Of a DNA stretch of 64,000 nucleotides, positions 33,601 to 42,140 are shown one piece after another. Each line of letters begins with the position of its first letter. Within the stretch, counting starts at the first letter, position 1. Source of the stretch: Kondoa subrosea (taxonomy: Eukaryota); NCBI GenBank assembly GCA_039545335.1, contig BCIN01000001.1, forward strand, positions 372,001 to 436,000, written 5' to 3'. Made by a program: the position numbers and the translations under genes. The notes beneath the pieces are model-generated. The model saw nothing but the letters and a program-made list of their open reading frames with translations, did no database searches and was not told the origin of the DNA.

Positions 33601-34761
33601 TGAGCCTTCTCCAAGTATTCAGCTGTTGGTTTGGCAGGTGCTGAGGAATCTTCTGGTCCATTGCTTTTACTTTGCGAAGGGGAACCCGGATCAGCATTAG
33701 ATGACCTGCGTGAGCGAGTTGCCTTTTCTGCATGCGAGTGTTGAGCAGCGTATTGAGCTTGCGCAGTTGCTGTCGAAGTAAAGCGTGGAATGATCTTGAC
33801 AGCAACCTGTAGCACAATGGCCCCAGTTCGACTAAGATAGCCTAGGTAAAACTGGTTGACAAGCTACCTTTTCGCCTGTGATGTTGCTGACCGCCAGCTT
33901 CACTTTACCCATACTACCTGCACCAACAGTCTTGCCTAAAGTCCATTCACCCAACTGCCTTCGACTTCCATTGCTCGCAATAGCAGGTGAAGAAGAACCA
34001 GCAGGACTATGACTGCTCTTGTTGGAATCTCTTTCTCTCCTACTACCCATTTCAGAAGATGTCTTAGCTCGATGACTGTCTCTTCGACCACTAGGTAAAC
34101 CGTGAAAAGAAGGGATTTCAGGTATGGCGCTTTTATCCAATTCTTGCGAAGGTTTCCTTGTCGGTCGGTCGCCTAAATCAGAGGAAGCAGAAGCTGATTT
34201 CCTTGGTTGTCTGGTCAGGTCATTCGAAGTAGTAGCGAGTACTTCAGTATCGTCTTCATCAATCGTTTGAGGAGGTCTAGAACTAGAATGTGCTGTTCGA
34301 GGACTGCTAGTTGATGTTGTTGGTGAATAAGAAGTAGAAGCTACAGGTATATCGGCCACTTCTCGAGCTACAGTAGGTGGAAGTGTATCGAAGCCATTGG
34401 CATTTTGATCTGCTTGGAAACCTTGCGCATCTTTAGCAACCATGATCGGCTGACTACTATTACTACCATCTGACTCTTCGTACAGAGGGCCAACAGGAAG
34501 CGAATTGGAACCAGTGGAACTCATGCTAGCATTTTGATCTTCTGCAGGATGATGCTTGGGCGTAGTCGCTACGAGATTTTCCGCCGACTGCGGAGGTGAA
34601 GTAGAGAAGACTTGGCCGGACAAGACATGATTCGGATTCGTCAGAGAAGGTAAAGGCTGAAGTTGTTGGCTGTGATCGTTTTGCAAGGTCATGTCTCGAG
34701 TAGCGGGCAGGTCCAGCATTGGTTGATTCGTGGTCGCAGCATTTTCAGTGAGCTGCTCCAT
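30662..34761 (-). CDS. KIN1: Ser/Thr kinase KIN1/KIN2 (MARK/Par-1 family) with C-terminal KA1 domain
   Basis: [61 protein letters not shown] and KA1 end [29 protein letters not shown]. Confidence 0.92.
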
Positions 34762-35061
34762 CCTTTATGCTCTATGCAACGCGTTGAGTTGGCGAGAGAG
34801 ATTCGGAAAATGCAACGTTGCCCAATGAAAGTTAAATGCAAGATAATCGTCAAGTAGAGGTGTCGTAAAGCCAGACCGAAGGCTGGGATGTATCAGTACT
34901 GTCTGTCCATGAAGCCGCTTTGGTATACTCCTTTCGATACACGCTCAACCAAGGTCAACCATCCCAAATTGCGAAATGCGACGATGCGTGTCCCCAAGCG
35001 GGCCTCAGTATTTCACAGCATTGAAGCTTGCTCAAGTGTTCGCTCATAATCTCTACAATAT

Positions 35062-36163
35062 TTACAAGGTCAAAGGATCTATCATTGATAGCTTTGCATC
35101 GTTCAGACGTTTCCATGTCTTTACTTTCCCTCCTTCTATATTGACTACTCGTACACGTCGAGGCCACCCTTCTTTCCCATATCTGCCATGCGGAAATAAA
35201 GCGTTGTCAGTAAAAGCTGATACAGATACTATCATGCTTACCCCGTAAAGCTACTTCCTCCAGCGAAGATTTGCCAAACATGTGGTTTCTCTTTCGCTTC
35301 TTCTTCATTATCCGGCTCTTTCCTCATGGCAAAATCATTGCAATGATTGTGACCAAAGAAGTTTGCCAGCACTCCCTTCTCTCTCATTGCTGAATAGATT
35401 TCCGTATGTACTCCAGAAGGTGTTGGTGTATATTGACATTGACCGATCATTTCATGTTTGCCTTGTTGTTGGGTAATGATTTCTCTAGGTGGGATATGCA
35501 TCCAAACTAAATGCAGACCACCATCTTTCGCTGGCGATTGTTTCTTGAACCATTCTATTTGATCCTCTTTCATCCAATCGTACTGTTGCGTTTCGTGTCT
35601 TCCTCCACTATCGACCAAAGTGATGAAAGCGAATTCTTCATCGTTTTCATCCTTGATTCGGATGTTGTAGTTTCCCGCTCCTGCTATATTCCGTGGTCCA
35701 ACTTTGCACAAAGAGAATGGATAGTTGGCTGAAGCTTCCATGACTTGCGTTCGATCGTTTCCATATTCATCATCTCTGTTTCCCAAGATGCAAGCGAAAT
35801 GGATTTGTCGACTTATACATAAAGAGAAGATGGAATCCAGAGCGAATTTCAGATCTTTAGATTCAGTGTTATCCCCAGAATATATAACTAGATCAGGTTG
35901 TTCTTTGTCAAGCGCTTGGTTGAGGAAATCCATAGTCGCTTTTGCAGGTGATCGACCAGTAAGATGTGAGGTAGATGGTTCTCTTCCTTCTGTAAGCGCG
36001 TAATCTGGCTTGTGCGGAGCATCCCAACCGCCCCAGTGAAGATCTTCAGCACAACAAACGTCAATTTTCGGGTTTCGGAGGAGTTTCGAGATTTACCTGC
36101 TATTTGCAAGATCTTGCATCGTTTATATGGCAGTTTCAGCACGGATTCTTCTTCGTTGCTCAT
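35062..36163 (-). CDS. Calcineurin-like metallophosphoesterase, DCR2-like
   Basis: KILQIADLH, PDLVIYSGDN, ILGNRDDE, WMHIP, FFGHNHCNDF, GGSSFTGYG; two introns. Confidence 0.8.
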
Positions 36164-36567
36164 ACTTCAGTTGCGAGCGAGTGCGAGAAAGAGGGATGAT
36201 ACGAAAATAGGTCACTTCTGCGAACGCGTGCCTGCGGAATGACGTTTCCCTCCGCTTTCAGTGGGCAGGTGAGCGTATTGCTATGCATGAGAGGTGTCAA
36301 GAGTGATCGTGTATCTAGCGAGGGATCACATTGCAACGTGATCGACTTGAAATGAGTGATTAGTAATGTAGTTTAAATCTCTGCCGATTGCCTCTTACAT
36401 AGGGACGAGACAAGAGGGAAAGCTGAAGCAATGCAATGAAAAGACAAACGCTGCGCAGATAACAAGGAGACAAGGCAGAAGACTAGGCGATTTTGTTGGT
36501 ATCAACAAAGTATGGTCATTAGTAAGCAAGTGCAGTCAGGTTTCCGGAACTCTTGGAACTTCCCTTA

Positions 36568-37494
36568 ATCAGCATACAGTGCTCACCAGACTATCCATTG
36601 TATCGCTTTGCCTCGGCTTCAATATGGTGCATTGTATAGTCAATGATCGAGACACTGCCAAAGTTGCAGCTGTTGTTGAAGGAGAAATAACGCGGCAGAA
36701 GAGGAAAGGAAGGAAGGCGAACGAGGAATGTCACACATATAATGAAAGAAGAAGCAAAAGAATTCCGATGCCCAAAAAATTAACTTTTCCTTTCCCTACC
36801 AAAACGAAAAGCCTTAATCTAGATAGAAGCGATTCTAACTTTTCCTGAGACTTATTGTTCTTCTCCACTGACCTCTTCTACTCCACTGATCTCTTGAAGA
36901 CGCGTATTCAGTTCAGACACAAGATTTCTGAGTTTTCGTCAGGAGTGTCAGAAACATTATTTTCAGTCGAAGCATAAAACGACTAACACTCTTCTTGAGC
37001 TTCTTCTTCGTACTGTTGCTCTCCTTCCTCTTCATCATCAAGCGAGGCATCTTGATACTGAGCACAACAGAAACGTTAGTACACGCACAATGGAGCGAGA
37101 GCATTGAACGGACTTGTTGATATTCAGAAACCAAACTACAGGACAACAAGTCAGCGTTCATCCTTTCAGAGCGTAATGGAGACAAGGCTTACTCTTGCAT
37201 GTTGGATTCAGCTTCTGTGAACTCCATCTGAGGCCAGATAGATCAGTCACACGGTCAGTGTAGGCGGATCAAGTTCTGTACCTCGTCCATTCCCTCGGAA
37301 ATGTACCAACTAATTCAATAAAATCAGGAATTAATCTGTAAGTAGAGGGAAGGAACCATACTGAAGGAAAGCTTTTCTCCTGAACATGGCAGTGAATTGA
37401 TCGGAAACACGCTTGAAGAGTTCTTGAATGTAGGTGCTGTTGCCGATGAACTATGACAGGCGCAATACGTTACTACACATATGCTTACGGCAAA
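36568..37494 (-). repeat. Left arm of ~0.9-kb inverted repeat (copy of the beta-tubulin 3' region 40702-41613)
   Basis: Direct base-by-base reverse-complement match, e.g. 37450 downwards TTCATCGGCAACAGCACCTACATTCAAGAACTC vs 40743 TTCATTGGAAACAGCACCTGCATTCAAGAACTC; outer end CAATGGATAGTCTGGTGAGCACTGTATGCTGAT vs CAATGGCTAGTCTGGTGAGCACCGTATGCTGAT. Confidence 0.97.
36926..37450 (-). pseudogene. Orphan beta-tubulin 3' fragment (last ~81 codons, introns intact); functional status unknown
   Basis: Splices to [81 protein letters not shown] with no stop or frameshift; no tubulin sequence upstream of 37494. Confidence 0.75.
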
Positions 37495-37775
37495 AGTTGA
37501 CGCGTAGGCTATTTGCCCTTCAGGTTTGATGTGCAAGAAGAGCACAAAGAGATCTTCTGGCAGGCGAGATACGTAAGAAAAGGAGGACCCCAGAAGAAGC
37601 GGAATAGCTGAAGTTCTGCCTTCTCGAAAAATGATGCTCATAAGAAAGCAAGGAAAGTAGAACAGGACAAAGCGAAAAAAGGATCCGGCGAACGAGACCA
37701 AACCTTTCTTCTAAGGCAGTAGTATTACATTTTACAAGTGACGTACACGAGGACCCAAAAGATTGAGACGCAAGA

Positions 37776-38513
37776 TTAGTCTGTTATAAGTTCACTGACT
37801 CTGTGATTGAAACGTCACATCAGAAGATCAGTAATGATCAAGAGGCAACAATGTAACCCTCACTTCCAATCTTCGAAAGAGCCATCAGGTAGATACCGCC
37901 GTACCACTAGAGGAATTTTCTTTTGCGCTAGTTCTTTCATTGCAATGTCGAGAGGATCTGATTCATGAGGTTCCAGCGGTACGAGAACAGGTGCGTTCAT
38001 GCTGTCCATGAGAAAAAGCTACATCAACGGCAAGGTTGATGCTACTCCACTCCACTCCCACTGACCTGATCTGCAACGCCCTTGTACCTAATATCCTAGC
38101 CTTTTCATATTTTGTCATGAAAGGTGTAGTGAAGCGTTCCTCGTTTGGCTGAGCGTTATTGGTTCCATCCGTAAAGCCATTAGGAGCACCACCAGAATGC
38201 ACTATCCCATTCGGATCCCCATCTTCATGCATGCCATTTGGTAAACCATCTTCACCTTCGCCTGGTTCTTCACCTGCTGCAGCATCCTCATCGATATCTC
38301 TTTCATTCAATAAATCATCTTCGTCCTATTGATCCATTCCAATGCAAGCATTAAGTGACCAGACCAGCGACTGAAAGAATAACAGAAATTTACAAGTTGC
38401 GGCTCATCATCGAAACTGAAGACAGCAGAGGCCTAAGTAAAGCGATAGGATTGTCAAGAGGATGCTACTTACTCTTCTGGTACACCTCCAAAGTCATCAC
38501 CTGCGTCAGACAT
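37776..38513 (-). CDS. RPB6: RNA polymerase I/II/III shared subunit RPB6 (RPABC2)
   Basis: [32 protein letters not shown]...[31 protein letters not shown]; acidic N-terminus; four introns. Confidence 0.95.
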
Positions 38514-38803
38514 GGTCGTTCTCTAGGGCAAGAATTCATACTTAGCAAAAAATGCCACCTCGACTCACGAACTCGGATGCGCCTTGCCGATTAGTAGCGC
38601 TTGAACCGCGACACTATCCTTTCTAGCTCTACTGCTACGTGTCCTGTAAGGCTCTACACAACCAGAATCACGTAAAGGCTCTGGCTTACTCTCGCCTTGT
38701 GCTCGTTTACGAACTTGTTTAGTTTCTACGACACACCTTCATATTTGGGTTTCGCTTACACTCCTTTTCAACATATATCTACCCCTTTACACAGTAAAAC
38801 AAC
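38514..38803. promoter_or_regulatory. Bidirectional promoter region RPB6/beta-tubulin
   Basis: 290 bp between divergent ATGs at 38513 (-) and 38804 (+). Confidence 0.6.
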
Positions 38804-41267
<2,464 letters not shown>

Positions 41268-42140
41268 ATCTCTCTTCTAGATAGGATGCGCATATCCGAG
41301 AGATCAGTGGAGGCGGAAGAATAAGTCACAGGAAAAGTTAGAATCGCTTCTATCTAGATTAAGGCTTTTCGTTTTGGTAGGGAAAGGAAAAGTTAATTTT
41401 TAGGGCATCGGAATTCTTTTGCTTCTTCTTTCATTATATGTGTGGCTTTCTTCGTTCGCCTTCCTTCCTTCCTTCCCTCCACCGCGTTGTCTCTCCTTCA
41501 ACAACAGCTGCAACTTTGGCAGTGTCTCGGATATTGACTATACAATGCACCATATTGAAGCCGAGGTAAAGCGATACATACAATGGCTAGTCTGGTGAGC
41601 ACCGTATGCTGATCAAAGAATGTATTGGGAGCGATAAAGACCTACTAGGGCTACAAGTGTTGCTTAGTAATGACTGTTTTGTCGTCAAACCATTCGATAC
41701 CCTGATGCTGAACCGACCGATGGCAGCTTGGTACCAATCAAAGCCTGTCATCACGTCTGCTATTCACTCGAATGCTCAAGTATTCTGCACGAAATCCATA
41801 ATCTCGGATTTGCTTGGATTTGCTCGCACGAGATCTCAATCCCGACCTTTCGCTCCTTGCCCGCAATGTTCCTTGCACTGTAGTATTTGCTGCAAGTGGC
41901 TTCCGCTCATAAAACAACCTTTTGCCTTTTCCGTCCGCCAATCCCAATCTTACAGCCATCTGGGCTCATTTATGCTTGCAACATGTGAAGACGACATTAA
42001 GGCACCAAAGAGCTTGCGTCAAGGCTGAAATTGTACTAGCGGGTCTTTCTTGTTCCTATCTTGTCACGACATCCGTTTGCAAGAGTTGAAGCTTGGCTTG
42101 CCTTGATCTGAGCACTACTACTAGATTTCATTCATACTGA

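Follow-up and report, generated by a model that had tools for sequence, protein, structure and literature searches.

Unprocessed partial duplicates of housekeeping genes that form inverted repeats with their parent genes are known, and we describe here a new instance of such a structure in a 64,000-nucleotide (nt) stretch of the Kondoa subrosea genome (assembly GCA_039545335.1, contig BCIN01000001.1, positions 372,001 to 436,000 of the forward strand; this whole stretch is referred to as the window, and all positions below count from its first letter). In this window, the last five exons of a beta-tubulin gene recur as an inverted orphan fragment, 3.3 kb from the same exons of the intact gene and with the RPB6 gene in between. 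At the borders of plastid inverted repeats, a straddling gene leaves a partial copy in the other arm, flip-flop isomers occur, and the arms are kept identical by copy correction. The tubulin locus resembles such borders in having a partial gene copy in the other arm; unlike them, it is nuclear and intron-rich, and its arms have diverged. Young or recently disabled unprocessed pseudogenes keep a low ratio of non-synonymous to synonymous divergence (dN/dS), as most of their divergence accrued while they were functional. Like these pseudogenes, the orphan has retained its introns, is a partial copy, shows very few replacements and carries the first radical replacement; in contrast, no complete second gene was found in the window, nor any trace of the lost part in the spacer next to the orphan, and the divergence at its synonymous sites exceeds that of three of the four introns nearby.

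In budding yeasts, part of SLA2 serves as a repeat arm of the flip/flop mating-type loci of Ogataea polymorpha and relatives (Krassowski et al. 2019, PMC6692504), and another budding yeast species has a 1.7-kb repeat with the SLA2 3′ end at 97% identity (PMC6692504). As in the SLA2 loci, to the extent that the consulted portions of this source describe them, one arm of the tubulin repeat ends a complete gene while the other is an orphan copy, an inversion would leave the gene whole, and the arms are in the range of ~1-2 kb. By contrast, the yeast arms, as described there, share 97-100% identity, are located on either side of MAT genes and undergo known inversions (PMC6692504), whereas the tubulin arms are 89-91% identical, the interval between them consists of RPB6 and the 5′ part of the tubulin gene, and its inversion is predicted here from geometry. 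The near-identity that characterizes flip/flop segments is not found between the tubulin arms, 814 of the 912 columns of the full-arm alignment being identical (89%).

In the Lyme disease bacterium Borrelia, the silent vls cassettes are ~90% identical to the expressed gene and are converted into one expression site (PMC11499132). Compared with vls as presented in the consulted part of that source, the orphan is similarly an open, presumably untranscribed partial copy ~90% identical to an expressed gene and is possibly kept open by copying into it. The vls system, unlike the tubulin orphan, is bacterial, comprises arrays of many cassettes and is under selection for surface-antigen variation, whereas the orphan is one copy of a highly conserved housekeeping gene and has no amino-acid variety to offer. 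The portions consulted of the literature on inverted partial duplications of basidiomycete tubulin genes, and on selection on conversion donors in inverted repeats, contain nothing on this locus.

A second, inverted copy of the beta-tubulin 3′ end

The left arm of the repeat duplicates, in inverted orientation, the 3′ end of the nearby beta-tubulin gene (Table 1). With the tubulin sense on the minus strand, it copies the right arm in four collinear blocks of 87-95% identity, and seven runs of 42-73 nt are identical between the arms. The window contains three inverted pairs of repeats of at least 60 nt, all of which belong to this repeat, and no family of direct repeats of at least 60 nt. The inner edge of the repeat lies inside intron 14, 14 nt before the acceptor of exon 15; homology extending past that edge into intron 14 (~28 nt by local alignment) was not significant, its score being reached by 27 of 300 shuffles. 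In terms of geometry only, the arm with the truncated gene is placed such that the tubulin gene is whole in either orientation of the interval. No Rfam family matched the region around the locus with E ≤ 1 or any part of the window at the gathering score.

The orphan exons translate without a stop codon into 82 residues, 81 of which are identical to the end of the protein encoded by the intact gene, and 36983-37450 encodes the C-terminal region of beta-tubulin; the translation of orphan exon 15 and a beta-tubulin of Mrakia frigida (P0088, residues 367-395) had 25 of 29 positions in common (E 2e-16). All four introns are present in the orphan, with the same lengths as in the intact gene (52, 54, 57 and 56 nt). 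The initial annotation had placed the fragment at 36926-37450, which covers the exons together with 57 nt of the 3′ untranslated region (UTR), but the repeat continues to 36558. The orphan arm lacks the 367 upstream codons, and an in-frame stop codon lies directly 5′ of its first exon. Thus, it is incomplete as a gene, lacks the GTPase domain and is unable to produce tubulin on its own. A processed (retro-copied) pseudogene is excluded by the four retained introns.

We examined the genomic status of the orphan in contigs from two public sequencing runs (X1 and X2) of one sample from one study. In both runs, contigs at 34000-36640 and 37401-40792 matched the two borders of the orphan arm without differences; this sample may be the source of the assembly itself, and the border match is therefore not independent support. 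The depth of an orphan-specific contig (36818-37043) was 140.1 compared to 142 in the unique flank in X1, and 51.3 compared to 53.2 in X2. Because the orphan contig has the depth of the unique flank, we conclude that the orphan arm is a second genomic copy at full depth and not the allele of the other haplotype assembled in the wrong place. The initial annotation had allowed that the fragment might be the intact allele of an alternative haplotype and, in so far as this concerns a misplaced allele, the depths speak against it. No polymorphism was listed on the contigs of either run, apart from arm contigs placed on the other arm. Neither joints nor a flipped form were listed, and the contigs break inside the arms, making them blind to orientation and to rare isomers. 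The contig at 37401-40792 enters each arm by just 64 nt and, since no contig spans an arm, the orientation of the interval relative to the outer flanks is unreadable; moreover, the inner parts of the arms travel with the interval in any exchange further out.

The 19-exon model of the intact gene was built by eye and then checked, and it has one terminal stop codon and GT..AG borders at every intron. This gene encodes a beta-tubulin, with a Tubulin/FtsZ GTPase domain and a full-length open reading frame (ORF): the Pfam family Tubulin (PF00091) matched exon 7 with E 3e-10 (41.1 bits; cut-off 33) and exon 9 with E 7.4e-11 (43.1 bits), and exon 9 had 98% identity to several basidiomycete beta-tubulins. 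Its protein has rare residues at two places, i.e. Ile-Ser in the motif HWY-xx-EG (40884-40911) and Cys in GNST-x-IQ (40761-40763).

Table 1. Positions in the window of the repeat arms, the orphan exons and the neighbouring features
Feature	Position	Strand	Details
Left (orphan) arm	36558-37464	-	Copy of tubulin exons 15-19 and introns 15-18, preceded by the final 14 nt of intron 14 and followed by ~425 nt of 3′ flank
Right arm	40729-41623	+	3′ end of the intact tubulin gene and 413 nt of flank past the stop codon
Repeat block 1	36881-37464 / 40729-41312		584 nt, 91% identity
Repeat block 2	36701-36860 / 41316-41475		160 nt, 95% identity
Repeat block 3	36599-36695 / 41482-41578		97 nt, 94% identity
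Repeat block 4	36558-36603 / 41578-41623		46 nt, 87% identity
Orphan exon 15	37362-37450	-	Equals 40743-40831; 29 codons and 2 nt; 4 synonymous differences and the sole replacement
Orphan exon 16	37282-37309	-	Equals 40884-40911; 1 synonymous difference
Orphan exon 17	37193-37227	-	Equals 40966-41000; no difference
Orphan exon 18	37114-37135	-	Equals 41058-41079; 2 synonymous differences
Orphan exon 19 and stop codon	36983-37057	-	Equals 41136-41210; 3 synonymous differences; acidic tail identical at protein level
Orphan 3′ UTR and downstream flank	36558-36982	-	34 mismatches in 405 aligned nt, 10 gap events
Intact beta-tubulin gene	38804-41210	+	19 exons, 18 GT-AG introns of 52-74 nt, 449 codons and stop codon
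RPB6	37860-38513	-	4 exons (38513-38473, 38415-38394, 38325-38066, 38001-37860), 154 codons; same strand as orphan
Shared RPB6/tubulin intergenic region	38514-38803		290 nt; divergent starts at 38513 (-) and 38804 (+)
Spacer, RPB6 stop codon to orphan arm	37465-37859	-	Unique, 395 nt
Candidate upstream ORF	37489-37641	-	51 codons from ATG, phase-0 end at GTAAGC donor (37488)

Probable purifying selection on the orphan exons

Between the arms, 11 of the 249 coding positions (82 codons and the stop codon) differed, ten of these differences being synonymous and one a replacement, i.e. TGC (Cys) in codon 7 of exon 15 of the intact gene (40761-40763) and TAC (Tyr) in the orphan (37432-37430). The initial annotation, from a hand alignment, had reported ten synonymous differences and one Cys-to-Tyr change, and we recovered exactly its ten codon pairs. 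It was also correct in restricting indels to non-coding parts and in describing the splice signals and branch-like motifs as kept: all 12 gap events between the arms were non-coding (two in the fourth intron of the arm and ten in the 3′ flank), with no coding indel, and the orphan arm has kept 4 of 4 GT donors, 5 of 5 AG acceptors and all CTRAY branch-like motifs. If indels were uniform, the probability that none of 12 events is coding would be 0.02. Separately, the acceptor of intron 16 reads AAG in the working gene (40961-40965) and CAG in the orphan (37228-37232), that of the orphan being the more usual. Transitions accounted for 10 of the 11 coding and 32 of the 48 non-coding differences; in the direction from intact to orphan, five coding changes were towards G/C and six towards A/T. 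Repeat-induced point mutation was excluded, as there was no one-way C-to-T pattern.

The pairwise dN/dS between the arms, which the initial annotation had proposed as a check, was low with a value of 0.017 (Nei-Gojobori method; S = 42.3, N = 203.7, dS = 0.284 and dN = 0.0049). Moreover, when 11 random substitutions were drawn in 200,000 trials, at most one was a replacement in a fraction of 5e-6, 0 and 3.5e-5 of the trials at transition shares of 0.63, 0.67 and 0.9, respectively. The relevant null is an orphan that has been neutral since the split beside a constrained gene, with equal branches. Under this null, the synonymous sites of the same exons predicted 14.2 replacements (P(≤1) = 1e-5); all aligned non-coding positions, 48 of 637 of which differed (32 transitions and 16 transversions), predicted 7.0 (P(≤1) = 0.0073); the non-coding positions with clustered differences merged into events predicted 4.7 (P(≤1) = 0.053); and introns 15-17 together with the 14 nt of intron 14 only predicted 3.45 (P(≤1) = 0.14). 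We prefer the synonymous yardstick, since a neutral orphan would have to account for at least half of the synonymous differences in these exons; all four are given here in view of the strongly uneven divergence of the non-coding parts. The 95% upper bound on the portion of the orphan's branch that was neutral ranged from 0.33 to 1.0 across the yardsticks. Codon positions 1 and 2 differed at 1 of 164 sites compared to 48 of 637 aligned non-coding sites (Fisher p = 0.0002), and exon 19 differed at 3 of 72 positions compared to ~27 of 155 in the adjoining intron and UTR (p = 0.006). In total, standard assumptions support purifying selection on the orphan exons, the strength of the signal depending on the yardstick, and these observations indicate that the exons carry protein constraint of the grade of tubulin. 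The selection proposed in the initial annotation thus stands in that a neutral orphan is rejected by the first two yardsticks (P = 1e-5 and 0.0073), but the conservative calibrations do not reject it (P = 0.053-0.14).

Polarisation with an outgroup had also been suggested in the initial annotation; for the replacement it was achieved with protein outgroups, whereas the synonymous sites were polarised by codon usage only. Among 107 matches to the GNST-x-IQ motif in 120 homologous proteins, the variable residue was Ala in 84, Ser in 22, Cys in one (Mrakia frigida) and Tyr in none. Because Tyr occurs in none of these motifs, the Tyr of the orphan is a derived and unusual state that arose on the orphan, and the sole replacement looks like decay on the orphan arm. 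At the ten synonymous sites, the commoner codon, according to usage in exons 1-14, was in the intact arm at four, in the orphan at three and a near tie at three; codon usage, a weak substitute for outgroup DNA, thus suggests that the synonymous changes are not all on one branch. In HWY-xx-EG, both arms have Ile-Ser, while 115 of 115 homologue motifs have Thr followed by Gly, Gln, Ala or Cys. Since this rare pair is common to both arms, the arms are each other's closest relatives within the lineage, and the pair together with the identical acidic tail indicates that the source of the orphan was a close sister sequence of the same lineage and not a foreign gene.

Divergence in the non-coding parts of the arms was patchy. 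Introns 15-17 differed at 5 of 163 positions and intron 18 at 8 of 55 positions with two additional indels. The first ~100 nt of the 3′ UTR were far more diverged than the farther flank, the distal part of which differed at ~5-6%, and intron 18 and the proximal 3′ UTR were several-fold more diverged than introns 15-17. A hypervariable patch of the 3′ UTR (41272-41328 and near 36870-36925) combines, within ~55 nt, clusters of differences of several bases with indels of 12, 2 and 3 nt, and it may have been produced by one or two complex events instead of numerous point changes. The longest identical run, with a length of 73 nt (41329-41401 and 36775-36847), lies between much more diverged sequence and had no Rfam match. 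The density of mutational events was similar in the exons (10 in 246 nt) and in the non-coding parts (32 in 637 nt). Third codon positions differed at 10 of 82 sites compared to 6 of 177 in introns 15-17 and the 14 nt of intron 14 (p = 0.011), and ten synonymous differences were observed compared to 4.5 predicted from the non-coding rates (P = 0.018). Synonymous sites often exceed non-coding DNA in divergence in compact yeast genomes, and this pattern may account for part of the synonymous excess over introns 15-17; none of the models considered explains this excess fully.

Possible past or present constraint on the orphan exons

We tentatively favour a historical constraint, with the fragment as the relic of a functional tubulin sequence that either was once complete or was copied late. 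Because RPB6 occupies the place of the upstream exons, the orphan can never have terminated a complete gene at its present location, and its protein-level constraint therefore needs another source. For most of the time since the split, the exons of the left arm would have been part of a complete, translated beta-tubulin gene. They would have arrived at their present place either as part of a second, inverted paralogue downstream of RPB6, the 5′ 2 kb of which were later deleted, or as a piece copied late from another functional tubulin copy or allele. Today, the fragment would be an untranslated relic in which decay has just begun, the first sign being Tyr in place of Ala, Ser or Cys; a radical replacement on the orphan looks like what is expected once constraint lapsed. 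We infer both that the constraint is past and not present and how the fragment originated. A relic is the most economical reading, as it involves only ordinary processes and no unusual mechanism. According to the bounds, the orphan may have been neutral for as much as 33-68% of its branch, which fits a relic that lost its function some time ago. Present translation found no support, the sole in-phase upstream ORF having null-like codon usage and needing a 38-nt intron.

Several points weigh against a relic. The spacer at 37465-37859 contains no detectable remnant of an upstream tubulin exon or promoter (best match 10 nt, E 0.84), and a former complete paralogue is thus not directly shown. An origin from a paralogue needs two events, a duplication followed by a deletion. 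Introns 15-17 are too similar (5 of 163) for a long separate history of two functional genes alone, and the synonymous excess, both over introns at third positions (10 of 82; p = 0.011) and over the non-coding prediction (10 compared to 4.5; P = 0.018), is left over. Finally, the tubulin copies considered are those of the 64-kb window, a second beta-tubulin gene in the rest of the genome being a possible source, and the synonymous changes are assigned by codon usage and not by outgroup DNA.

Present use of the orphan exons, as part of a spliced chimeric protein or as the alternate 3′ end of tubulin after a flip, with current selection keeping the residues of 81 of the 82 codons, is unlikely, and a complete lack of constraint is less probable again. 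In the latter case, the arms would stem from a recent duplication, with neutral divergence at the ~3-5% seen in introns 15-17 and in the distal flank, and the orphan would have drifted freely and acquired only one replacement by luck; most of the synonymous differences would lie on the branch of the intact gene or would have been imported into one arm from a third tubulin sequence. The nearest-intron calibration (3.45 replacements expected, P = 0.14), the calibration with merged clusters (P = 0.053), the similar event densities in exons and non-coding parts, and a sole replacement that is radical and on the orphan are all in line with free drift. However, drift needs ten synonymous differences where 1.4-4.5 are expected (P = 2.8e-6 to 0.018), for which there is no known cause, and the orphan's branch should hold at least half of the synonymous changes, predicting ~14 replacements (P = 1e-5). 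Moreover, codon-usage polarisation points to changes on both arms, and there are no coding indels.

Of the two forms that present use could take, expression in place ranks below free drift and is improbable. The orphan exons would be spliced and translated today as the C-terminal 82 residues, comprising surface helices and the acidic tail, of a small chimeric protein that starts either from the candidate ORF upstream (37641-37489) or by an alternative splice out of RPB6. The splice signals of the orphan are all intact; the orphan lies on the RPB6 strand and 395 nt downstream of this gene, the last exon of which has two in-phase GT sites; and the end of the candidate ORF coincides, in phase 0, with a GTAAGC donor that resembles the consensus and precedes the first acceptor of the orphan by 38 nt, an arrangement with a chance of 0.026-0.036 in 20,000 shuffles. 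In addition, a dN/dS of the orphan itself of up to ~0.33 is compatible with one replacement. Because several routes were scanned, an ORF with a chance of 0.03 is weak evidence, and the codon usage of the candidate ORF is null-like: it scored 0.001 per codon, compared to 0.41 for the tubulin arm exons and approximately 0.21 for RPB6, and 53% of 162 null ORFs scored as high. Splicing of this ORF to the orphan would create an intron of 38 nt, below the range of all 21 introns at the locus (52-74 nt). The ORF has no Pfam family, and a search of 5.8 billion proteins (proteins of 91-2000 residues; 27 candidates) returned no match. A new stand-alone function should also bring some amino-acid change and not near-perfect identity.

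The other form, in which recombination couples the orphan to the working gene, is the least probable of the causes to which we assigned a probability. Crossing-over between the arms would invert the 3.3-kb interval with RPB6 and tubulin exons 1-14, or conversion would proceed from orphan to gene, such that parts of the orphan arm are periodically the working 3′ end and damaging changes in it are removed by selection once they are exposed in the working gene. The start of the repeat inside intron 14 gives a complete gene in either orientation, and the seven identical runs of 42-73 nt could support homologous exchange. The distance of the replacement from the inner edge of the repeat is 20 nt, and its transfer to the working gene would require an exchange within the first 34 nt. 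Flip/flop inversions between truncated-gene repeats are documented in budding yeasts in the consulted portions of PMC6692504; the tubulin arms, however, are 89-91% identical compared to 97-100% in the yeast systems described there. By reasoning, an exchange rate visible to selection, i.e. above ~1/Ne (the reciprocal of the effective population size), would greatly exceed the per-site mutation rate, such that the arms should remain almost identical, and the higher divergence of synonymous sites than of introns 15-17 is left unexplained. Gene conversion with a neutral orphan was rejected, by the reasoning that replacements would then be the longest-lived differences, the opposite of what is seen. 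Altogether, the relic of a working tubulin sequence is the reading that we tentatively favour among these, with the remaining probability left for causes not considered.

Neighbouring genes and implications

The Pfam family RNA_pol_Rpb6 matched two exons of RPB6 with E 3.3e-4 and 2.4e-3, both under the curated cut-off when scored exon by exon. The adjacency of RPB6 and tubulin was absent from all 80 metagenome loci fetched with RPB6 exon 3, with tubulin at E ≤ 1e-5 in none of them; the closest of these loci had 49% identity to RPB6 exon 3 over residues 1-86 and 54% over residues 31-86. On the other side of the orphan, an ORF at 35241-36092 on the minus strand has a metallophosphoesterase domain (PF00149, E 1e-7), and this ORF has only one relative, at 83% identity, in the 5.8-billion-protein search (proteins of 156-497 residues). 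Judging by this lone relative, the lineage seems to be poorly sampled.

If the constraint is only historical, the orphan is an ordinary, well-preserved gene relic, and it serves mainly to caution against taking a low dN/dS in a fragment as evidence of present function. Under current constraint, the locus would be either a rare nuclear case of an essential housekeeping gene with two interchangeable 3′ cassettes in an invertible segment, or the source of a new small protein derived from the face of tubulin that binds motors and microtubule-associated proteins. Finally, synonymous sites that are more diverged than the adjacent short introns bear on the use of such introns as a neutral yardstick in intron-rich fungi.

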